NCBI GenBank assembly: GCA_048882485.1
Contig: JBHLRP010000005.1
Location: forward strand, 34,601-98,600
DNA from: Candidatus Thorarchaeota archaeon
GTDB lineage: Archaea > Asgardarchaeota > Thorarchaeia > Thorarchaeales > Thorarchaeaceae
Direction: 5' to 3'
DNA length: 64,000 nucleotides
Shown here one piece after another: positions 32,122-48,226 of the stretch. The notes under the pieces are model-generated. The model was not told where the DNA came from, did no database searches, and worked only from the letters and a program-made list of their open reading frames with translations. The translations under genes and the position numbers were made by a program. Positions within the stretch are counted from its first letter, which is position 1; every line of letters starts with the position of its first letter.

Positions 32122-32270
32122 TGCGCTATCCAACCTGAATGCGAATCTACCTGTTCTTCGGGCTATACAGCTGGGAGTCAATGGGTACTATTAGATTTCC
32201 GGTTTTCCCGAATATATGGCCACATCCGAGCAACTAAAAGGCATAGCTTGAGGAGCACAGTTTGTTAAAA

Positions 32271-33236
32271 ATGGCAATTGAGAAACGTAGGCTCGGAAAG
32301 ACAGACCTTGAAGTCTCTCCAATTGGATTGGGAGCTATGCAGTTTGCGGGAGGTAGCGGCTTCTTCAGATTCTACCTCACTCGTATTGCTCCTGATTGCA
32401 TAGACGAGATAGTGCAGCTTGCCCTCGACAATGGGATCAACTGGATTGATACGGCTGAGGTTTACGGCGGAGGTGCCTCTGAGAGGGCTGTGGCTCATGG
32501 TCTTGCCTCGGTCGGGAAATCTCCAGGAGATGTGATTGTCACAACCAAATGGATGCCAGTACTGAAGAGTGCTAGTAGCATCCGAAAGGCGGCTGAGAAG
32601 AGCACCAATCGACTCACCCCGTATCCAATTGACCTTTATCTAGTCCATCAGCCATTCTCAAGGTCCTCAATCAAAACACAGATGAATGCGATGGCGGATC
32701 TTGTTGACGCTGGGCTGGTGCAGGCTGTAGGAGTTAGCAATTTTTCGAATGTGAAGATGTTTTCTGCTCACGAGGCTCTGGCTGAAAGAGGGATTCATCT
32801 TGCTACAAATCAGGTACAGTTCAGTCTGCTACATAGAAATATCGAACATAATGGAGTACTTGAGGCTGCTCGAGACTTGGATGTGACAATTACCGCGTAC
32901 ACTCCACTTGGCATGGGAGTCCTTACAGGGAGACTGCACAGCAATCCGGAGTTGTTTAGCAGCATGCCTCGGTTTCGGCGTTCAAGGCTTAGAGGGAAGA
33001 TCAAAGAGAGTAAACCGCTAGTTGATGAGCTTGAGGCAATTGCTCGAGAGCATGAAGCTACTGCTGCTCAAGTAGCCTTAAGTTGGACAATCAACTATCA
33101 TGGGGACAAGGTCGTGGCTATTCCAGGAGCCAGTAAGCCCTACCAAGCAGAGCAAAATGCTGGTGCCATGCGCGTTTCGCTCACATCTGAACAGATGGAG
33201 TCACTTTCAACTCTATCATCTGAACTGGCTGGATGA
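32271..33236 (+). CDS. Aldo/keto reductase
   Basis: VSPIGLGAMQ, IDTAEVYG, IDLYLVHQP, VGVSNF, AYTPLGMG, AIPGA. Confidence 0.93.
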   Translation: MAIEKRRLGKTDLEVSPIGLGAMQFAGGSGFFRFYLTRIAPDCIDEIVQLALDNGINWIDTAEVYGGGASERAVAHGLASVGKSPGDVIVTTKWMPVLKSASSIRKAAEKSTNRLTPYPIDLYLVHQPFSRSSIKTQMNAMADLVDAGLVQAVGVSNFSNVKMFSAHEALAERGIHLATNQVQFSLLHRNIEHNGVLEAARDLDVTITAYTPLGMGVLTGRLHSNPELFSSMPRFRRSRLRGKIKESKPLVDELEAIAREHEATAAQVALSWTINYHGDKVVAIPGASKPYQAEQNAGAMRVSLTSEQMESLSTLSSELAG

Positions 33237-33272: not shown

Positions 33273-34040
33273 CTATGGATCCCAGTCATACTTGATGAAT
33301 TGATATGGAGCATACTCATCAGGATCCAGTTCCTCCATTATCTCCCCAAATGGCATAGTTGTCGTTGCTCCCTCAGTGTAGGAAACTAACATCACATCGA
33401 CTATTGGAATCTGATGCAATGGATCATACTTTGATTCAGGGAATCTCACAGTGCCCTCACCAATCTCCAGCTTGACAAGCTCTGTTCTATTTTGCTGCCT
33501 CATAAGCAAGGGCTTCATACCGACACCAAGCCCTCTCTCGTCCAAAATGGACTTTACTAGAAAATGAGGTCCCTGTGGAGACCGCTCCTCCATAACGTCA
33601 GTAAGTGTCACTTCAATCTCTACAATGGGGGCTCCTCGTCTGACACAAACTCCCTTTGCGTTGCTGCCTGCTCTCTCAACTGTGATGGAATCTGCAATCT
33701 TTTTCGGGTATCCATAGATCTCTCTTCCCCCAATCATTGCAATATCATTATTCACTGGCATTGATATACAGTAACTCCCTGTTTCTCCTTTATACTGCAC
33801 TGGTAGGAAGACTGCAGCTTCATTATAGGGCGGGCAGAAGTTCGGCTCGTGGAATTCAGCCACATAGGTTGATGCCATAAGGATTGGTCCTGGCTCAAGC
33901 GGTGGCGGGATGACCTGTCTGATTGCGTCTTCAGTCGTCGTGAACATGGCAATAATCATGGTGGCATTGGTGAGCACATAGCCCTCAGCAAACTTCTTGG
34001 AACGTTCTTCTATTTCTTCCATTGTTCTTGTGAGTTTCAT
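33273..34040 (-). CDS. Acetoacetate decarboxylase family protein
   Basis: IPPPLEP, YNEA, GGREIYGYPKK (Schiff-base Lys motif). Confidence 0.88.
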   Translation of the reverse strand: MKLTRTMEEIEERSKKFAEGYVLTNATMIIAMFTTTEDAIRQVIPPPLEPGPILMASTYVAEFHEPNFCPPYNEAAVFLPVQYKGETGSYCISMPVNNDIAMIGGREIYGYPKKIADSITVERAGSNAKGVCVRRGAPIVEIEVTLTDVMEERSPQGPHFLVKSILDERGLGVGMKPLLMRQQNRTELVKLEIGEGTVRFPESKYDPLHQIPIVDVMLVSYTEGATTTMPFGEIMEELDPDEYAPYQFIKYDWDP

Positions 34041-39572: not shown

Positions 39573-42500
39573 CTAAAGCTTCGCAAGTTCTTCTTCTCTT
39601 AGCCGCTTCTTGAACAGCTTCATTACAACGGTAAGTGGGAGCTCATCTCTGAACTCAACCCACTTTGGTATTGCATAGGGTTTCACCTTTCCCTTCAGGA
39701 ACTCTATGATGTCTTGTTCAGAGACCTTTCCTCTATGCTCGGGTTTCAGCTGGATGAATGCCTTTACTCTTTCACTCCCCGGTCTTTCGGCATCAGGAAT
39801 GCCAATCACACCTGCGACATCAACCGCTTCGTGTTCGTTGAGAATGTCATCAATGACCCTGCTATACACCTTGTTGCCTGAAACATTGATCATGTCCTTG
39901 ATTCTGTCTACGATTTTGAAGTATCCATCCCCGTCCATTTCAACAACGTCGCCCATTGGCAGCCAAGCGCCGTCCTTCAGTCCACTGCCTGGCGTCGGCC
40001 AATAACCCCGCATGATCTGGGGTCCGCGTATCCATATCTCACCACGATGACTGATAGGAAGCTCCTCTCCAGTATCAGGATCGACTATTTTTATCTCAGT
40101 TTCAGGAATTGGAACTCCGACTCCTCTCTTTGTTTCCGCCATGAAACCTGTGACCTTAGAAAGAGCTGAGATGTTTATTGTGACAACGCCGGATGTTTCG
40201 GTTGCGCCATATCCTTCGCCCATAGGCACACCTGCCTTCTTCTCGAATTCCTCAGCGAGGTCTGCGGGAAGAGCTGCCGCTCCCGAGAAATAGAAGATCT
40301 GCCCCTTGATCATGTCCATCTTTGAGAATAGCATATAGTGAGTTGGAACTGCAAATACCACAAATGGCCGATGCTGGTTGATTACTTCAACAATCTTTGG
40401 AATATCTCTCGAGTCCATCAGGTGCATTTTGAGTCCCCAAGAGATGCAGGAGTGCAAAGCCCAGTGGCCGTATGCATGGAAGATTGGCACACATATCAAT
40501 CCAGCACTCTTCCCGATGATTCCTTCCTTTAGCGGATCCATCATCCAATGCATAGTCTGCCTCACGTTGGTAGTTATGTTGTAGTGAGTCAGCATCGTTC
40601 CCTTGGGTTGACCTGTGGTGCCCCCTGTAAAAGGCAGAAGTGCAATGTCTTCCTTTGGATTAATCTCAACAGTTTCAGTATGTGGTTCATGATTCTGGAT
40701 TAAGTCATCCATGAGGTGATAGTTCTCATCATCAATATCTTCCATTGCAGGATACTGATAATCGGGGAATAGCTTCGTTGGTGTGTAGATGACTGTCTTC
40801 ACTTTGGTATCAGGTTTAACCTCATTGACACGCTCGATTCGCCTGTAGGAGCAGACCACAATCTTCGCTTTGCTTTCACTGAGCTCGTATCTCAGGTCGT
40901 CAGCCTTGTGTAGAATACTGAGAGGTACATGAATGGCACCAATCTTCATGGCGGCATAGTCTGCGATAATGAATTCTGGACATGATGGGAGAACAGTTGC
41001 AACGCAATCACCCTTCTTCACACCCAATGCCACAAACGCTGATGCAAGTCTATCAACCCTATCCTTCAATTCGGGATAGGTCATTTCCTCATCGGCGTAT
41101 TCACACGCAATCACGTCCGGGAATTCCGCTGCAGTGTCTTCAAGAAACTTATACACATTTACCTCAGGATAAGGAGCCATAGAGTGCTCGAGCTTGAATG
41201 GGCCTATCTGGTAGTTTTCGAGCCATGGCTTATCTCCAACCACTTCATTGGTTCGCAACTCAGCAGCTTTCTTCTTGGTGCCAGTGGAAGCTACGTGAGT
41301 TCTATGTCTGATCAATTCTGGGGTTTCGCCCGTATCTGCATGGACTGTATCTATAAGCCATTCCAGCCCAAGTTCCTGAAGCTTCTCAATCGTCGGTCTG
41401 CCTTGCTCATCCCACCCGCGGTATTTGTAGTACGCATCAAGAAGAACATCCAGGTCCACAACATGTCCCTCTGCGGGGCCTTCAGGTAATGGGTCTTCCA
41501 GCAACCGTGGTGGTAATGTGTCATCAGCTCGTGTGAAGCCTTCTCTCAGAATATAAGCTCGCTCTAAATTGTAGATTCTCTCACCTGTCTTACGGAACTC
41601 CTCTGGCGTGATTTCTAGGCCCATCAAAGCGGACATCAGTCCAGCCCAATCCTCGGCAGTGAGAACCATACCCATGAATTTACACCCACCGATCGCATCA
41701 AAATTCCCAAGTGCGTCCTCAAAGTTCTTCACAACTAACGCGGTTTCAGGAATCTCTTGTAGGGGGTCTCCGATATCTGCGTCCTCCACAATCATGAATG
41801 GCATTGCAAGGAAAGCTGGGCCTTCGATATATGCTGTGATGTGATCGCCACCACGGTTAGCCACCGCATAAGCGAGACCAGTTACTTTGGCAGCACGGCT
41901 ATCATATCCAGGCAGCTCAAGTCCCTTGACATGCATGGCGAAATGCTCTGATCCTTGACCAAGTTTCTCCGCCATTCGCTTTGTGCCTTCAGCCAAGACG
42001 TCACCGATGCCTTCGCGCTTTCCAATCTTATGAATAACGTCGACAACCAGCTGAGCGTTCCCCCAGGAGAAGTCCAATCCATCCACATCTTCGTTCTTCA
42101 GAATGCCCCGCTGGTAGCATTCCATTGCAAATCCGATAGTATTCCCTGCAGATACCACGTCAATACCGTACTCATTGCAAAGGAAGTGAGCAAGTGTGAT
42201 CGCCTCTAGGTTGTCCACACCACACATTGTTCCAAGAGATGCTAGTGATTCGTATTCTGGTCCTTCTCCTCTGCTCTTGAACGGACCAGCCTTGATCTCT
42301 GCTATCCGTCCGCAATGAATGGGACATGCGAAGCAGGGCTTTCGCTTCACCAATATGTTGTCGTTAATTGCAGTCCCATTGATTTGCTCCGCGTTCTCAA
42401 AGACTCCTGTCTGCCAATTCCGTGTTGGAATACCACCCTTGACATTCACCAAGTCTACCATCGTAGCTGTTCCATAGACCTCGAGAGTCATCTTCAAAAT

Positions 42501-43205
42501 GCTCTGGTTCACCCAGTCGAATCTCTGTTTGGCTTCTGCCTTGTATACTTCAGGTTCAGCAATAGGAATAGTCATGGTTCCCTTGGACGCAATTGCCTTG
42601 AGATTCTTTGAACCCATTACTGCACCCACACCACAGCGACCTGCTGCACGCCCCCAATTCTCCTCATCGCAATCATTCATGATGGCTGCATATTTGACCA
42701 AGTTCTCCCCAGCAATACCGATGCACGCGACGTTGAACTTCTCGCCATGCTTCTCTCGAAGTATCCTAGTGGTTTCTGAAGTGTTCTTCCCCCATATCTC
42801 TGAGGCGTCCACAAGTTCAGCTTTCCCGTCTTCTGTCAGCAAATAGACTGGCTTTGGAGATTTACCCTCAAATATCACCCCATCAAATCCGGAGCGCTTG
42901 AAATCTCTCCCCCAGAACCCGGCGGAGTTGGCATGTCCCCATCCATTGGTGAGTGGTGCCTTTGTCACTACACTATAGCGACCTGTGCTGGGCGATGTTG
43001 TTCCTGTCAAGGGGCCTGTCATGAGGATTAGCTTGTTTTCTGGTCCCATGGGATCAATGCCTGGTTCTGTTTCTTCAAAGAGTATCTTTGTTGCCAGTCC
43101 AGCACCGCCGAGATATTTCCTCAATGTATCCTCGTCAGGGAATTCCTCTGTTATTGTGGATGTTGTCAAGTTAATGCGCAGGATTTTGCCCATGTAGCCA
43201 AACAT
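39573..43205 (-). CDS. aor: Fusion of a tungsten-type aldehyde:ferredoxin oxidoreductase (N-terminal) and a long-chain acyl-CoA synthetase / AMP-binding enzyme (C-terminal)
   Basis: AOR: GKILRINLT, YLGGAGLA, KAPLT, AGRCGVGAVMGSKNLKAI, CFACPIHC, GPEYE, VKGLELPGYD, YYKYRGWD. Synthetase: KPWL, FTGGTTGQPKG, GEGYGATE, GD...DGYFKIVDRIKD, LPLT..MK. One uninterrupted ORF. Confidence 0.93.
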   Translation of the reverse strand: MFGYMGKILRINLTTSTITEEFPDEDTLRKYLGGAGLATKILFEETEPGIDPMGPENKLILMTGPLTGTTSPSTGRYSVVTKAPLTNGWGHANSAGFWGRDFKRSGFDGVIFEGKSPKPVYLLTEDGKAELVDASEIWGKNTSETTRILREKHGEKFNVACIGIAGENLVKYAAIMNDCDEENWGRAAGRCGVGAVMGSKNLKAIASKGTMTIPIAEPEVYKAEAKQRFDWVNQSILKMTLEVYGTATMVDLVNVKGGIPTRNWQTGVFENAEQINGTAINDNILVKRKPCFACPIHCGRIAEIKAGPFKSRGEGPEYESLASLGTMCGVDNLEAITLAHFLCNEYGIDVVSAGNTIGFAMECYQRGILKNEDVDGLDFSWGNAQLVVDVIHKIGKREGIGDVLAEGTKRMAEKLGQGSEHFAMHVKGLELPGYDSRAAKVTGLAYAVANRGGDHITAYIEGPAFLAMPFMIVEDADIGDPLQEIPETALVVKNFEDALGNFDAIGGCKFMGMVLTAEDWAGLMSALMGLEITPEEFRKTGERIYNLERAYILREGFTRADDTLPPRLLEDPLPEGPAEGHVVDLDVLLDAYYKYRGWDEQGRPTIEKLQELGLEWLIDTVHADTGETPELIRHRTHVASTGTKKKAAELRTNEVVGDKPWLENYQIGPFKLEHSMAPYPEVNVYKFLEDTAAEFPDVIACEYADEEMTYPELKDRVDRLASAFVALGVKKGDCVATVLPSCPEFIIADYAAMKIGAIHVPLSILHKADDLRYELSESKAKIVVCSYRRIERVNEVKPDTKVKTVIYTPTKLFPDYQYPAMEDIDDENYHLMDDLIQNHEPHTETVEINPKEDIALLPFTGGTTGQPKGTMLTHYNITTNVRQTMHWMMDPLKEGIIGKSAGLICVPIFHAYGHWALHSCISWGLKMHLMDSRDIPKIVEVINQHRPFVVFAVPTHYMLFSKMDMIKGQIFYFSGAAALPADLAEEFEKKAGVPMGEGYGATETSGVVTINISALSKVTGFMAETKRGVGVPIPETEIKIVDPDTGEELPISHRGEIWIRGPQIMRGYWPTPGSGLKDGAWLPMGDVVEMDGDGYFKIVDRIKDMINVSGNKVYSRVIDDILNEHEAVDVAGVIGIPDAERPGSERVKAFIQLKPEHRGKVSEQDIIEFLKGKVKPYAIPKWVEFRDELPLTVVMKLFKKRLREEELAKL

Positions 43206-43245
43206 GATTGGATTGACCCCTACTTATGAAGCGGGCCTTGTACGG

Positions 43246-43253
43246 TTTTATAA
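43246..43253. promoter_or_regulatory. Shared TATA box (TTTTATAA) of the divergent aor-fusion / moaD promoter
   Basis: Only ~80 bp separate the two starts; the TTATAA core is palindromic. Confidence 0.5.
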
Positions 43254-43284
43254 GCCTGATGTTTGGAAGACTCAGAGTGGAGCT

Positions 43285-43569
43285 ATGATGAAAGTCACTG
43301 TGAAGTTCTATATAACACTTCGAGACCTCACAGGGAAGAAAGAACCAATCAATGTCGAACTGGATAAGGGTGCAACCATTTCAAACCTTCTTGATGAACT
43401 CTATTTGGATTCAGGAATTAAGGAAGCAATGATCGCAGAGGATCAGAAGGTGAAGCCGGATATTACAATACTAATCAATGGCAGGGAGATCAAATTCCTG
43501 AATGGAATTGAAACGAAATTGAGCTCTGGAGATGAGATATCGATTTTTCCACTGGTAGCAGGCGGCTGA
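43285..43569 (+). CDS. moaD: MoaD/ThiS/SAMP ubiquitin-like sulfur carrier
   Basis: MKVTVKFY..LRDLTG, ILINGRE, GDEISIFPLVAGG with C-terminal GG. Confidence 0.92.
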   Translation: MMKVTVKFYITLRDLTGKKEPINVELDKGATISNLLDELYLDSGIKEAMIAEDQKVKPDITILINGREIKFLNGIETKLSSGDEISIFPLVAGG

Positions 43570-43634
43570 ACCATGTGAAGCTCAATTTATCAATCAGTTT
43601 TCCATAGCCTGTTGGCGTAGTAGAAAACAAGGGA

Positions 43635-44090
43635 GTGATTGAAATTCCGAAATTGTTCTCAGATGAATGGTTAGATTTGTACAAAGATGCAATCAATGCC
43701 AACGAGGCCTACGAGAAGGCTGCGTCTTGGTGGACTGGCGATTTTATCTTCATAATCAAAGCAAGTGGAAATTTGGATCATGATGTCATGGCCTATATCG
43801 GACTGACCCATGGAAAATGTACTGGTGTCAAATCCATTGCAGGGGAGGATGAATATGAGATTGTCAAGCCGGGCGAATCCGCGAGCGGTGACAAACTCGC
43901 TGTGGAATACACCTATGAAGCTGACTATGAAACCTGGGTGGATATTCTGAAAGGCGAACTGGATCCCATCCGCGGCCTTCTAAGTGGAAAGGCGAAGATC
44001 GTGGGTGAAATGGCAAAGGTTCTCAAGGCAACCGATGCAGCAAAGGAGCTAGTGCGAACTGCAGGAATGGTTGACACTGAATACTTCTAG
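43635..44090 (+). CDS. SCP2 sterol/lipid carrier domain protein
   Basis: LFSDEW....DAINANEAY..AA..W.GDF, HGKC, W..IL.GELDPI.GLLSGK.KI.GEM. Confidence 0.85.
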   Translation: MIEIPKLFSDEWLDLYKDAINANEAYEKAASWWTGDFIFIIKASGNLDHDVMAYIGLTHGKCTGVKSIAGEDEYEIVKPGESASGDKLAVEYTYEADYETWVDILKGELDPIRGLLSGKAKIVGEMAKVLKATDAAKELVRTAGMVDTEYF

Positions 44091-44109
44091 CTAAGCAAGG
44101 TGATGCGTT

Positions 44110-44520
44110 GTGGATGAATCAGCACAGGAAACCCTATTCCTGACATTTAAGACTGTGATTGAAGATGTGATTGCTGACAAGCGAAAGAATCCCAAGAACA
44201 CGAAGACGCTAGATGAGTTTCAGGCCAGAATTAACATTGGTTTGCATGTGGAAGAGGATTTCATTCTCTGGGTGAACTTGATTGCTGATGCTGGAAAATA
44301 CGAACTCAACAATGGAGCCTTAGAAGAGTTCGATTTAGAGCTTATTGCTGATCCGGAGGACCTCATGTATTTCACAAATGGACAGTATTCCACAATTAAG
44401 ATGATGACTTCAAAGAATAGGTTCGGTAATAGACGGTTGCGTTACAAGGGCGGTACTACTGGTCGCAACATGGGAAAGCTTCTGAAGCTTCCAAGGATTC
44501 TCGTCTTGGATAAGAAATAG
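44110..44520 (+). CDS. Divergent SCP2-like protein
   Basis: DLELIADPEDLMYFTNG, RLRYKG...NMGKLLKL resembles the SCP2 C-terminal half. Confidence 0.55.
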   Translation: MDESAQETLFLTFKTVIEDVIADKRKNPKNTKTLDEFQARINIGLHVEEDFILWVNLIADAGKYELNNGALEEFDLELIADPEDLMYFTNGQYSTIKMMTSKNRFGNRRLRYKGGTTGRNMGKLLKLPRILVLDKK

Positions 44521-46082: not shown

Positions 46083-47063
46083 ATGACGCTGAAGCACAGG
46101 ATCATTAACGCCATATTGCTCCGCGTAGGATATCCAAGAATCAAAGGTATTATTGCAAAACAGAAGTCGGTCTGTAAAATCCCCACTGCATTGACTTCAA
46201 CACCAAACTCACCCACAAGATTTGAGATTCCCCTTGAAGCCATTAAGATGATGAAAGAACGTGAAGACTTCGAGATGAAACAGACCTTTCCAATGAGAAG
46301 AATGCTGTCGATAATGAGGAATATCAACAAGACAATCGATACACTACCCGATAATCCTGCTGCATCATCCAATGGGACTTCCGGTGACTTCATCGACACC
46401 TTGAAGGAATTTGCCTACTCCCAAGGTGTGGGCATCATTCATTTCACCAAGTTGCCCAGAGACCTGATCTTCCAAGAGTTTGGTGTGCTATATGATAATG
46501 CAATAATCTTGGCAATGGAAATGAGCCAGGAGAAAATTGACCAAGCCCCCAGTCAGGCCACATTCAAGATGGTCTTCGATACCTATGATGACCTTGGAAT
46601 TGCAGCAAACAGAATCGCGGCTTTCTTGCGGGAACATGGGTACGCAGCTCAGGCCGATCACCCATTGGGCGGAACAGTTCTATATCCACCGCTTGCCCAA
46701 AGAGCAGGGATTGGCTTTGTGGGGAAGCATGGCCTCCTTATCACTCCCAAATTTGGCTCAAGAGTTAGACTCGCAGCTGTGTACACGAGTATTCAGAATT
46801 TGCCTGATATGAAGGAAAACAATCACAATTGGATCGCGGATTACTGCAAGATCTGCGGCCTTTGCATAAAGCAATGTCCACCTGGGGCGATTCTTGAAGA
46901 AACTATTATGCGTGACACTGGTATCAATACTGATATCGTTCAGAGGGACTGCTTCGAATATTTCGTGGTGAATTATGGATGTTCGGTATGCATCAAGGTC
47001 TGTCCGTTCTCCAAGGGCATTGATGCTTATGAACGGTTGAAGCAAGTGGTTGAGAAACAGTAA
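46083..47063 (+). CDS. Reductive dehalogenase / epoxyqueuosine reductase-like cobalamin-2x[4Fe-4S] protein
   Basis: NAIILAMEM, AGIGFVGKHGLLITPKFGSRVRLAAV, CKICGLCIKQCP, C...CSVCIKVCP. Confidence 0.8.
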   Translation: MTLKHRIINAILLRVGYPRIKGIIAKQKSVCKIPTALTSTPNSPTRFEIPLEAIKMMKEREDFEMKQTFPMRRMLSIMRNINKTIDTLPDNPAASSNGTSGDFIDTLKEFAYSQGVGIIHFTKLPRDLIFQEFGVLYDNAIILAMEMSQEKIDQAPSQATFKMVFDTYDDLGIAANRIAAFLREHGYAAQADHPLGGTVLYPPLAQRAGIGFVGKHGLLITPKFGSRVRLAAVYTSIQNLPDMKENNHNWIADYCKICGLCIKQCPPGAILEETIMRDTGINTDIVQRDCFEYFVVNYGCSVCIKVCPFSKGIDAYERLKQVVEKQ

Positions 47064-47083: not shown

Positions 47084-48226
47084 TCAATTATCACCTAAGT
47101 ATTCATGTGCTTTCTTAAGCTGGTCAATGATTTCAATGGCCTGGGGACACTTCTCAAGACACTCACCACATTCTTCGCAAGCAGAAGCATTTGCCCCTTT
47201 GGCCCATGGTGTTTTTCCAATCAATGAGTAGAGACGCCTTGCTTGCTGTCTATGTCCATATATCTCGTAATTCTGGAGTGCTTCGAATATTAGACTGATA
47301 TTCACTTCATTTGGACAAGGTTCACAGTATTTACACTGGGTGCAGACGAGGTCACAGAGTTCTTTGAATTTCCTGGCGATGCTCTCAATTGACTCCTCTT
47401 CCTTCTGCATCAGTTTATCATAATCTTCTCTAGATGCAAGACGAAGGTTATCTTCAAGCATAGAATCAGAACCCATTCCTGAAAGTGCAACAGAAACGTT
47501 GGGATTGCTGTAAACGAATTTCAATGCCAGGTCTACGTAGTTCTTTCTGCCTGGTGAAAGCCATTCCTTCATCTCTTCCGGCAAATCCTCTCCAGCTAGT
47601 CTTCCTCCGCCTACTGGACCCATAATCGCAACGGCGAGCCCCTTTTTCCCGGCATAGTTGATCATCTCATGATTGACTTGGTCAACGATATTGTATTGAA
47701 CAAGCATTAGCTCAAAGTGTCCTGAGTCTATGATCTCTTTGAGGACCTCAGGTTTGTCATGAAACGAGAATGCGAAGTGTCGAAATTTCCCCTCTTCCTT
47801 AGCCATCATTGCTCTGTCTATGAGATCCATGCCCAATACTTTCTCCTCGAAGGTCTTCTTGTTCAAGGAGTGGAATAGATAGTAATCCAGATACTCGACA
47901 TCCAAGCGTCTTAGCTGTTCGTCAAGATACTTCTCGAAGTGCTCAGGCTTTGAAAATTCATCAGGTCCCACCGGGCATTTCGTTGCCAATGTCACTCTCT
48001 CTCGATATCCATCCTTTAGAGCCAACCCTACGACAACCTCGCTCTCCCCACCATGATAAGGCCAAGCGGTATCTATGTAGTTGATGCCATTGTCAATTCC
48101 TTTTCGGATTAGCTGGATTGCTTCAACTCTCTTGATTTTGCCATCCTCATCAGTGGGAAGGCGCATTGCTCCAAATCCCAGCACTGATACCTTTGTTCCT
48201 GTATTGCCCAAAGCCCTGTACTTCAT
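47084..48226 (-). CDS. Aldo/keto reductase with a C-terminal 4Fe-4S dicluster
   Basis: GFGAMRLP, IDTAWPYHGGESE, CTQCKYCEPCP, CEECGECLEKCP. Confidence 0.92.
   Translation of the reverse strand: MKYRALGNTGTKVSVLGFGAMRLPTDEDGKIKRVEAIQLIRKGIDNGINYIDTAWPYHGGESEVVVGLALKDGYRERVTLATKCPVGPDEFSKPEHFEKYLDEQLRRLDVEYLDYYLFHSLNKKTFEEKVLGMDLIDRAMMAKEEGKFRHFAFSFHDKPEVLKEIIDSGHFELMLVQYNIVDQVNHEMINYAGKKGLAVAIMGPVGGGRLAGEDLPEEMKEWLSPGRKNYVDLALKFVYSNPNVSVALSGMGSDSMLEDNLRLASREDYDKLMQKEEESIESIARKFKELCDLVCTQCKYCEPCPNEVNISLIFEALQNYEIYGHRQQARRLYSLIGKTPWAKGANASACEECGECLEKCPQAIEIIDQLKKAHEYLGDN

Follow-up and report, generated by a model that had tools for sequence, protein, structure and literature searches.

Proteins in which successive enzymes of aldehyde metabolism are fused include AdhE (ALDH-ADH) and CAR (A-T-R), in both of which the reactive aldehyde or the activated acyl group is prevented from escaping by diffusion (PMC12041015). 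The archaeal gene described here, which joins an aldehyde:ferredoxin oxidoreductase (AOR) to a FadD-like acyl-CoA ligase (ANL), resembles both in this linkage of consecutive steps (PMC12041015), but neither of them contains a pterin/Fe-S AOR. AdhE moreover uses a CoA-acylating NAD-dependent ALDH and spends no ATP, while CAR relies on a phosphopantetheine carrier and an NADPH reductase. A second related system is AorABC of Aromatoleum aromaticum, which occurs with AorD and AorE, has MoaD-like maturation genes in its operon and is followed in its pathway by a CoA ligase (PMC6365974). Unlike the protein described here, AorABC consists of three subunits including an FAD subunit, uses NAD as acceptor, has a ligase that is neither adjacent nor fused, and has no SCP2 partner.

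The fused gene lies in a stretch of 64,000 nucleotides of a Candidatus Thorarchaeota contig, hereafter the window (Table 1). As stated in the preliminary description, AOR and ANL are encoded in one reading frame, in which four Pfam domains were detected: AFOR_N (residues 6-210; 8e-78), AFOR_C (237-614; 5e-140), AMP-binding (688-1069; 7e-89) and AMP-binding_C (1118-1193; 2e-11). The linker is shorter than the roughly 40 residues given there, varies in sequence across fused orthologues, and occupies the same position as the AOR stop, the 20-40 nt spacer and the ANL start of split forms. Full-length orthologues from the same family are free of stop codons and 79-96% identical. Because the frame is uninterrupted in 17 loci from 16 genomes of this family and in six independent metagenome contigs, neither misassembly nor a frameshift can account for the fusion; the gene is real, both halves are intact and the AOR-ANL architecture is confirmed.

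Table 1 Features of the fused gene and the divergently encoded genes, in positions of the window.
Feature	Position	Strand	Details
Fused gene AOR-linker-ANL	39573..43205	-	Single uninterrupted ORF, ATG start, 1210 aa + stop
AOR domain, residues 1-622	41340..43205	-	W/Mo bis-pyranopterin + [4Fe-4S] aldehyde:ferredoxin oxidoreductase
Inter-domain linker, residues ~623-654	41244..41339	-	~32 aa
ANL (FadD-like acyl-CoA ligase) domain, residues 655-1210	39576..41243	-	AMP-binding + AMP-binding_C
Divergent intergenic region, 79 bp	43206..43284	.	One palindromic TATA-like element, TTTTATAA, at 43246-43253, read from sequence
MoaD/SAMP1-type small sulfur carrier, C-terminal GG	43285..43569	+	TIGR01687 73.6 bits, NF041918 67.8
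SCP2a, Thermus TT1886-family SCP2 fold	43635..44090	+	AF2 pLDDT 91; Foldseek top 2CX7
SCP2b, second small protein, probably SCP2-like	44110..44520	+	AF2 pLDDT 69; Foldseek top matches SCP2 proteins

By sequence, the AOR half belongs to the AOR proper, with 555 bits to Pyrococcus furiosus AOR (1AOR), the closest solved structure, compared to 233 bits to BamB; other close members are 9MQX, 9G7J and Aromatoleum AorB (8C0Z). It aligns with 1AOR over the full length and retains the three-domain AOR fold signature, the second pterin motif, the four [4Fe-4S] cysteines (Cys288, Cys291, Cys295 and Cys494 of the P. furiosus enzyme), Glu313, Tyr312 and His448. The cysteines of the CxxCxxxC motif, the fourth cysteine in D-A-I-G-G-C-K-F and the equivalents of Glu313, Tyr312 and His448 do not vary among 45 orthologues, both fused and split. 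Apart from its covalent bond to a ligase, the AOR half differs from 1AOR in the exchanges of Asp338 for Asn (invariant in the fusion's clade), Lys450 for Thr and Glu332, a ligand of the inter-subunit iron, for Leu, and it falls into a distinct clade in which an ANL gene nearly always comes next.

In the ANL half, motifs A3, A5, A7 and A8 and the A10 lysine (Lys1196) are invariant in the same 45 orthologues. The iron-sulphur cysteines and ligase motifs named earlier are all present. Both Pfam domains are shared with FadD-1 of A. fulgidus (3G7S), feruloyl-CoA synthetase (8WEV) and the Thermus LC-FACS (1ULT), as are motifs A3-A10 including the catalytic lysine with FadD-type synthetases in general. 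Unlike these, the ANL half has Met instead of Gly before the A10 lysine and an N-terminus joined to AOR, and the score to any solved ligase is only ~200 bits (8WEV and 3G7S). The best NCBIfam model was PRK06187, a long-chain-fatty-acid--CoA ligase (370 bits; cut-off 476), and since none of the NCBIfam long-chain ligase cut-offs was reached, the chain length of the substrate is not fixed by this comparison. Feruloyl-CoA and 4-coumarate-CoA ligases scored equal to FadD.

A MoaD gene and two SCP2-like genes had been proposed on the opposite strand, and all three were recovered. The likely true start of the MoaD-type gene lies 79 bp from the AOR start; in the longer ORF, homology begins only at residue ~28. 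Its scores compare with model cut-offs of 49.5 bits (TIGR01687) and 60 bits (NF041918). The element TTTTATAA between the divergent genes may represent a promoter. SCP2a belongs to the family of Thermus thermophilus TT1886 (1WFR, 2CX7), as indicated by the family profile (E 8e-25), the best Foldseek match (2CX7, E 1e-11) and TM values of 0.74-0.89. Its conserved motifs, W33-x-G35 and G-L-x-H59-G-x-C62, correspond to W-E-G and D-L-W-H-G-x-C in TT1886, which is a structure-only entry without assigned function. All 18 SCP2a family members examined match Pfam SCP2, and the cysteine is conserved in 55 of 55 aligned members, in TT1886 and in a haloarchaeal homologue. SCP2b itself gave no Pfam match, four of ten members of its family match Pfam SCP2 weakly, and its top Foldseek matches are all SCP2 proteins (E 4e-4 to 1e-3); the protein is probably SCP2-like.

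Present in at least 16 Thorarchaeial genomes, the fusion is a lineage-wide gene that is not confined to the source genome. A literature search found no paper describing the architecture. Public databases already list the gene under a generic AOR name. In other Asgard archaea and in a clade including Deltaproteobacteria-labelled metagenome-assembled genomes, AOR and ANL are encoded separately, with 24-106 nt between them. This split operon is widespread, and many other anaerobes have the two genes as neighbours beside a lipid-carrier gene. The two are fused or directly adjacent in ~110 of 400 Asgard genomes. In 80 loci collected with AOR as the only seed, the gene immediately downstream is ANL in 52 of 53 bacterial-like and 22 of 22 Asgard-like cases; where flanks were complete, an SCP2a-like gene was found within 3 kb in 19 of 24 and 11 of 12 loci, respectively. 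The fused form occurs in one Thorarchaeial clade and one f11 lineage, with same-strand neighbours elsewhere. The tree requires at least two fusion events, and monophyly of the fused forms was rejected by an AU test (delta lnL 510, p 5e-152). Following Rosetta-stone logic, fusion in these two lineages and adjacency elsewhere support a joint function.

As to the synteny raised in the preliminary description, SCP2a accompanies AOR/ANL in 20 of 21 Asgard loci and in three gene orders, the MoaD-type gene in 11 and SCP2b in 10. A distant paralogous cluster has the order SCP2a-ANL-SCP2b-FeADH-AOR. When Asgard loci were seeded on SCP2a, roughly one in two lacked AOR/ANL in the vicinity. In genomes of the Lokiarchaeia type, SCP2a is part of a housekeeping block into which AOR-ANL was apparently inserted, which weakens the linkage there. 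Further neighbours are Fe-ADH (7 of 21 Asgard loci and 13 metagenome loci), a GMC oxidoreductase directly upstream (12 loci), acyl-CoA dehydrogenase (10 loci) and thiolase (four loci); these would provide the reaction that precedes the AOR/ANL chemistry and those that follow it. As no alcohol dehydrogenase or beta-oxidation gene adjoins the fused gene in the window, the aldehyde source is not given by the neighbours here; the genome encodes six acyl-CoA dehydrogenases.

Plasmids pHM100 of Haloferax mediterranei and pHBOR02 of Halogeometricum carry the same module in an aerobic form, with an NAD-dependent ALDH in place of AOR. Both have the order alkylsulfatase-MFS-ALDH-ZnADH-SCP2a homologue (30% identity), followed in pHM100 by FadD, ACAD and 3HCDH and in pHBOR02 directly by 3HCDH; the clusters are mutually syntenic and are treated as a single observation. 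Haloarchaea gave two further, weaker hits, which lack the cluster. Shared with the fusion locus are the order alcohol, aldehyde, acid, acyl-CoA and beta-oxidation and the SCP2a homologue after the dehydrogenases, which in pHM100 also precedes the ligase, whereas nothing is fused and MoaD is absent. The same logic underlies alkJ-alkH-alkK in alkane degradation by Pseudomonas.

The AOR/ANL pairing, the linkage to SCP2, ADH and beta-oxidation genes and the haloarchaeal plasmids together favour the route from aldehyde via acid to acyl-CoA on hydrophobic substrates that had been proposed from the window, and we regard it as the probable function. At its W (or Mo) bis-pyranopterin centre, the AOR domain would oxidise a long-chain or isoprenoid aldehyde to the free acid and pass two electrons via the [4Fe-4S] cluster to ferredoxin. 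The ligase domain on its flexible linker could then adenylate the acid and convert it to acyl-CoA for beta-oxidation, possibly with some channelling between the halves. The two SCP2-fold proteins may bind the hydrophobic substrate or intermediate, and the MoaD-type protein may aid maturation of the pterin cofactor. The whole enzyme would thereby link two successive reactions by which poorly soluble alcohols and aldehydes are degraded anaerobically. The earlier idea of a ligase that has to draw the reaction forward is not supported, as redox potentials make aldehyde oxidation by ferredoxin exergonic already. Activating an aldehyde-derived acid with ATP also costs more than using a CoA-acylating aldehyde dehydrogenase, which speaks against the proposal.

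The gene content, in which Fe-ADH occurs with AOR and ANL, suits either direction equally. The ligase might run backwards (acyl-CoA + AMP + PPi to acid + ATP + CoA), AOR might reduce the locally released acid with reduced ferredoxin, and ADH might form the alcohol, in a fermentative electron sink like the acetogens' AOR route to ethanol. AORs do reduce acids, AMP-forming ligases are reversible in some syntrophs, a high local acid concentration in a fusion would aid the unfavourable reduction, and Asgard archaea need sinks for reduced ferredoxin. We nevertheless consider this unlikely, since the acyl-CoA dehydrogenase and thiolase neighbours and the haloarchaeal alkylsulfatase and beta-oxidation genes point to catabolism towards acyl-CoA, NAD-ALDH in the aerobic analogue is normally unidirectional, and ligase reversal requires PPi conservation, which is rare.

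The same chemistry and direction may instead serve aromatic or branched aldehydes that arise from amino acids or from amines, such as phenylacetaldehyde, indoleacetaldehyde or isovaleraldehyde. P. furiosus AOR, the closest solved relative of the AOR half, prefers amino-acid-derived aldehydes, a class-III aminotransferase near six of 21 loci hints at such substrates, and the equal ligase scores of the ANL half would fit them. The order of AOR and CoA ligase is also that of anaerobic phenylalanine degradation in Aromatoleum (PMC6365974). No 2-oxoacid decarboxylase is linked, however, and the SCP2 proteins, the adjoining genes for Fe-ADH and GMC (AlkJ-type) enzymes and the analogue in haloarchaea are a better match to aliphatic chains, which renders this substrate range rather improbable.

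Very doubtful is a CAR-like reduction, in which ANL would convert an acid into acyl-AMP, acyl-CoA or a thioester with the conserved SCP2a cysteine and AOR would reduce this activated form to the aldehyde with ferredoxin. An adenylating domain and a reductase are combined as in CAR, the cysteine is conserved throughout the family, and BamB demonstrates that the AOR family can bind CoA thioesters. On the other hand, Pfam detected neither a PP-binding carrier domain nor an NAD(P)H reductase domain. The AOR half keeps the Glu and His that ordinary AORs use in oxidising aldehydes, and it resembles 1AOR much more than BamB. The cysteine also occurs where NAD-ALDH replaces AOR and is therefore not tied to tungsten chemistry. 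Finally, an odd AOR-ETF chimera at the same locus in the related assembly G320 indicates that rearrangements or misassemblies can occur there, but an assembly, frameshift or annotation error or a decaying gene is in practice refuted by the recurrent open frame, the strong conservation of both halves with invariant catalytic residues, and the second, independent fusion.

The fused gene carries four Pfam domains in one uninterrupted frame with intact catalytic residues, which bears out the one-ORF AOR-ANL architecture claimed in the preliminary description. Residues 1-614 of the fused protein aligned with residues 1-601 of the Pyrococcus furiosus AOR 1AOR (555 bits), and invariance of residues was judged across 45 aligned orthologues, fused or split. 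All 45 sequences share the [4Fe-4S] ligands (Cys288, Cys291, Cys295 and Cys494 in P. furiosus numbering; here C291, C294, C298 and C508) as well as Glu313 and His448 (E319 and H455), and the equivalent of Tyr312 is kept. The second pterin-binding D-x-x-G-L-(C/D) motif is intact (D503-A-I-G-G-C508). In contrast to 1AOR, the first motif reads N344-E-Y-G-I-D349, with Asn in place of Asp338 in all 45 aligned sequences, Lys450 is replaced by Thr, and Glu332, a ligand of the inter-subunit iron, is lost. By sequence, the AOR half falls within AOR proper, and tungsten content and ferredoxin-coupled aldehyde oxidation are predicted for it. A BamB-like class II benzoyl-CoA reductase was excluded, as BamB (4Z3W) scored 233 bits compared to 555 bits for 1AOR. 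No Bam-type partner genes were found among the neighbours of the fused gene.

The ANL half aligned over its full length with the FadD-type ligases 3G7S and 8WEV (~200 bits). Its motifs are all invariant or nearly so in the 45 orthologues, namely the A3 P-loop (T860-G-G-T-T-G-x-P-K-G), A5 (G-Y-G-A-T-E), D1086 (A7), the A8 hinge (D1100-R-x-K) and K1196 (A10). None of the curated long-chain-fatty-acid--CoA ligase models was reached; the best, PRK06187, stayed at 370 bits where 476 are required, and the score fell further below the cut-off in all models after it, so that the ANL half is placed only at the superfamily or FadD-like level.

Features of the fused gene, its neighbours and a related chimeric locus. 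Nucleotide positions are those of the window unless a locus is named; residues refer to the fused protein.
Feature	Position	Strand	Remarks
Fused AOR-ANL gene	39573..43205	minus	single ORF, 1210 aa, no interruption
AFOR_N	residues 6-210		Pfam, 261 bits (cut-off ~30)
AFOR_C	residues 237-614		Pfam, 468 bits (cut-off 27)
AMP-binding	residues 688-1069		Pfam
AMP-binding_C	residues 1118-1193		Pfam
SCP2a	43635-44090	opposite to fused gene	SCP2 fold
SCP2b	44110-44520	opposite to fused gene	small gene, weaker SCP2 evidence
Aldo/keto reductase + 2x[4Fe-4S] domain, 326-aa protein with C-terminal ferredoxin domain, second aldo/keto reductase, acetoacetate-decarboxylase-family gene	46083-47063, 47084-48226, 32262-33236, 33273-34040	(+), (-), (+), (-)	
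AOR-ETF chimera	L055:3745-6627	minus	CP070761.1, Thorarchaeota bin27 chromosome (G320:C1)
Ferredoxin-domain ETF-alpha	L055:2543-3742	minus	next gene after AOR-ETF chimera

A search among 5.8 billion proteins recovered ~45 clusters with all four domains, which share 79-91% identity (NCBI name Thorarchaeota) or 62-64% (one named Hodarchaeota). Six-frame searches of 400 genomes of the phylum found residues 1-1210 in one open frame at 17 loci, spread over 16 genomes of family f1, to which the window's genome belongs, and an open fused frame in two genomes of family f11 as well. Orthologue-level matches (E <= 1e-195, counted by hand) occur in roughly 110 of the 400 genomes: 40/86 in f1, 18/22 in f11, 52/135 in f22 and one in f32. 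In the other orthologue-bearing genomes, AOR and ANL are separate, adjacent genes on the same strand. There, the AOR ends with ...I-D-Q-I-Y-stop, followed by a spacer of 20-40 nt and a ligase start shortly before a conserved K-P-W-L; the spacer occupies the place of the ~32-residue linker, variable in sequence, of the fused forms. The fusion recurs across many genomes and contigs, which rules out an artefact of assembly or frameshift. Homologues are likewise not always separate, the fused form being present in many genomes and metagenome contigs.

We inferred a maximum likelihood tree from the concatenated AOR and ANL halves, rooted with a distant paralogous pair. All 16 Thorarchaeial fusions group in a single clade (SH-aLRT 100) with split forms as sister, and the f11 fusion sits inside the split f11 pairs (support 99). 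A single fused clade was rejected by the AU test (delta lnL 510, p 5e-152). Together with the nested f11 fusion, this implies that the fusion arose at least twice. The best 150 representatives (>= 444 bits) out of 1.84 billion proteins included no further, more distant AOR-ANL fusion.

A MoaD/SAMP1-type gene lies on the opposite strand and probably starts at 43285, which leaves 79 bp to the AOR start; this agrees with the earlier placement of MoaD and two SCP2-like genes about 80 bp away. The encoded protein passes TIGR01687 (73.6 bits, cut-off 49.5) and NF041918 (67.8 bits, cut-off 60) and has a Gly-Gly C-terminus (...V-A-G-G). For AorD/E in Aromatoleum a role in cofactor maturation has been proposed (PMC6365974). 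The 79-bp divergent spacer contains a single copy of a palindromic TATA-like element, TTTTATAA (43246-43253), ~32 nt upstream of the MoaD start and 41 nt upstream of that of AOR; the element could serve both divergent transcripts.

SCP2a alone does not reach the Pfam SCP2 gathering score (19.7 vs 21.3 bits). All 18 aligned members of its family match Pfam SCP2 at E <= 0.1 (best 4e-8), and its AlphaFold2 model (pLDDT 91) retrieved SCP2 proteins or domains as the top 29 Foldseek matches at E <= 1e-3. The best of these was TT1886, an SCP2-like protein of Thermus thermophilus (2CX7; E 1e-11, TM 0.74-0.89), which the SCP2a family profile also matched (1WFR, E 8e-25). For SCP2b, no Pfam match was obtained for the protein itself, and 4 of 10 relatives matched SCP2 weakly. 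Its model (pLDDT 69) found SCP2 proteins as best Foldseek matches throughout (E 4e-4 to 1e-3, TM 0.46-0.60). A comparison with the SCP2a family profile using hhalign was without significance, and a recent paralogy of the two genes was therefore set aside.

The linkage of the cassette, i.e. the AOR-ANL pair in fused or split form, to these small genes was evident in three Asgard families: SCP2a adjoins AOR/ANL in 20/21 loci, the MoaD-type gene is adjacent in 11/21 and SCP2b in 10/21. SCP2a occurs in three arrangements, divergent and upstream of the fused gene (fused Thorarchaeia), co-directional as SCP2b-SCP2a-AOR-ANL (split Thorarchaeia) and downstream of AOR-ANL (f22). According to Pfam, an Fe-dependent alcohol dehydrogenase (Fe-ADH) is encoded near seven and a class-III aminotransferase near six of the 21 loci. 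Moreover, a distant paralogous cluster (AOR 36-38%, ANL 34-36% identical) again joins SCP2a, ANL, SCP2b, Fe-ADH and AOR. No ferredoxin or other redox partner adjoins the fused gene in a conserved manner in the window and the 21 loci, and none of the four window genes for aldo/keto reductases, a ferredoxin-domain protein and an acetoacetate-decarboxylase-family protein is kept beside the fusion in other genomes.

A caveat to this linkage is that about half of 80 SCP2a-seeded loci lack AOR/ANL within 7 kb. These are Lokiarchaeia-type genomes, in which SCP2a is part of a housekeeping block (PheRS, cytidylyltransferase, DUF1512, HAD, PPDK). In genus g70, the gene order suggests that an AOR-ANL pair was inserted into this block. 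In the Promethearchaeota-labelled loci L078-L126, the order is PheRS-beta, PheRS-alpha, cytidylyltransferase, an unknown gene, DUF1512 and SCP2a, followed by (CBS protein, Zn-ribbon protein), HAD hydrolase, PPDK and Trp/Tyr-tRNA synthetase. The same Lokiarchaeia-type block occurs on a contig labelled 'Candidatus Nanopelagicaceae bacterium' (L095, DATKTW010000026.1), which is probably mis-binned. On a Haladaptatus plasmid (L214), SCP2a adjoins a HAD-IIA hydrolase. Submitter names also conflict among close relatives of the window's genome (91-96% identity), which are called Thorarchaeota, Hermodarchaeota or Promethearchaeota.

Outside Asgard archaea, the closest AOR (61% identity) falls in a cluster labelled Deltaproteobacteria MAGs by NCBI. 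For an unbiased test, we collected 80 metagenome loci seeded on this AOR alone, 56 of them bacterial-like and 24 Asgard-like. ANL lies directly downstream of AOR in 52/53 bacterial-like and 22/22 Asgard-like loci, with gaps of 24-106 nt (one of 250; mode 26) and 51-120 nt, respectively. Fused loci numbered none of 56 and 6 of 24, and an SCP2a-like gene was present within 3 kb in 19/24 and 11/12 loci with full flanks. Across the 80 loci, a GMC flavoprotein oxidoreductase is encoded immediately upstream in 12, and Fe-ADH, acyl-CoA dehydrogenase and thiolase genes occur in 13, 10 and 4. The GMC oxidoreductase family includes AlkJ, the alkanol dehydrogenase of Pseudomonas.

The best plasmid matches of SCP2a were on pHM100 of Haloferax mediterranei and pHBOR02 of Halogeometricum borinquense. 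The annotation of each lists an alkylsulfatase, an MFS transporter, an aldehyde dehydrogenase, a Zn alcohol dehydrogenase and SCP2. On pHM100, SCP2 is followed by a long-chain fatty acid-CoA ligase, an acyl-CoA dehydrogenase and a 3-hydroxyacyl-CoA dehydrogenase; on pHBOR02, a 3-hydroxyacyl-CoA dehydrogenase comes directly after it. This cluster is an aerobic version of the same module, with an NAD-ALDH where the cassette has AOR. Since the two plasmids are mutually syntenic, they amount to a single observation; the cluster was missing from two other, weaker haloarchaeal SCP2a matches.

The most economical reading of these data is a route from alcohol or aldehyde via acid and acyl-CoA to beta-oxidation. 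Where encoded, the Fe-ADH or GMC enzyme would convert a hydrophobic alcohol to the aldehyde; no aldehyde-producing gene is encoded near the fused gene in the window. The AOR domain would oxidise the aldehyde to the acid and reduce ferredoxin, the tethered ligase domain would convert the acid to acyl-CoA, and acyl-CoA would enter beta-oxidation. The SCP2 proteins may solubilise the substrate or pass it on, and the MoaD-type protein may act in cofactor maturation. The window's genome encodes six acyl-CoA dehydrogenases and 11 AOR paralogues. Aldehyde oxidation with ferredoxin as acceptor is already exergonic according to established potentials, so that the ligase, contrary to the earlier proposal, need not pull the AOR reaction forward; the benefit of the fusion is more probably proximity and stoichiometry. 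With this gene content, the same enzymes could possibly work in the reverse, alcohol-forming direction, and amino-acid-derived substrates are another possibility. A CAR-like reduction of the activated acid fits poorly, as the fused protein has no carrier or reductase domain: of the adenylation, phosphopantetheine carrier and NADPH reductase domains of a carboxylic acid reductase (CAR), Pfam detected the adenylation type only, with no match to PP-binding or reductase domains, which excludes a CAR.

The SCP2a family carries a W-x-G motif and a G-L-x-H-G-x-C hairpin, whose Cys is kept in 55/55 aligned sequences, including relatives of 24-30% identity, and is likewise present in TT1886 and the haloarchaeal homologue. 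To our knowledge, neither the Cys nor W-x-G is a general SCP2 feature. It may be speculated, as a very improbable option, that SCP2a is more than a passive lipid binder and that its Cys carries the reactive, hydrophobic aldehyde (as thiohemiacetal) or the acyl group (as thioester) between alcohol dehydrogenase, AOR and ligase. If so, SCP2a would be a cofactor-free protein carrier in aldehyde metabolism, and the fusion one among several builds of a three-part substrate-handover machine. The linkage of SCP2a also gives TT1886, a Thermus protein represented by structure only, a first functional context.

The characterised AORs known to us all stand alone or are complexed with electron-transfer subunits, and what they act on in the cell is mostly guesswork. 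Through its fusion to an acyl-CoA ligase, which happened at least twice, one AOR clade gains a defined metabolic position. The operon shared with genes for an SCP2-fold protein and for alcohol dehydrogenases is conserved and points to the same position, which would be the ferredoxin-linked, oxygen-independent equivalent of the alkJ-alkH-alkK steps by which alcohols and aldehydes enter beta-oxidation. A route of this kind, open to testing, could allow anaerobes that are abundant in sediments, both Asgard archaea and the clade including the Deltaproteobacteria-labelled MAGs, to use fatty or isoprenoid alcohols and aldehydes. Wax esters, ether lipids, alkyl sulfates and phytol are sources of such compounds.

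A tie to alkyl-CoM reductase and thus to alkane oxidation was rejected: among the 400 Asgard genomes, just three (families f17 and f19) gave an MCR/ACR alpha match, none of them has the cassette, and MCR/ACR alpha is absent from the window's genome (90.5% complete). A paper on an alkane-oxidising archaeon cites the proposal that AOR acts in the conversion of alkyl-CoM to acyl-CoA, and fadD and alcohol dehydrogenase genes were noted there for fatty acid or alcohol use (PMC10811742). The enzymes of the cassette are candidates for the steps from aldehyde to acyl-CoA left open for such archaea (PMC10811742). A full-text literature search found no description of an AOR-ANL fusion or an AOR-SCP2 link, and public databases label the fused protein only 'AOR C-terminal domain-containing protein'. 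What is new is the covalent and operonic combination of two known enzymes, plus a new accessory protein.

A chimera of AOR and ETF was observed in assembly G320, at a locus orthologous to that of the fused gene and with MoaD-SCP2a-SCP2b upstream. The 960-aa ORF comprises AOR (91% identity), the linker, ~40 ligase residues and an in-frame ETF-beta domain, which is a stand-alone gene in assembly G321. Since it occurs only in G320 among the 86 genomes of the family, the chimera was dropped as another recurrent architecture; either the locus was truly rearranged or it was misassembled. Other AOR fusions include a 3-hexulose-6-phosphate-synthase/OMP-decarboxylase-type domain (P0055-P0085 and P0138, about 830 aa), in sequences named Methanomethylicaceae, Nezhaarchaeales or Thermoprotei, and an Fe-dependent alcohol dehydrogenase (P0110, P0124 and P0234, about 1000 aa).
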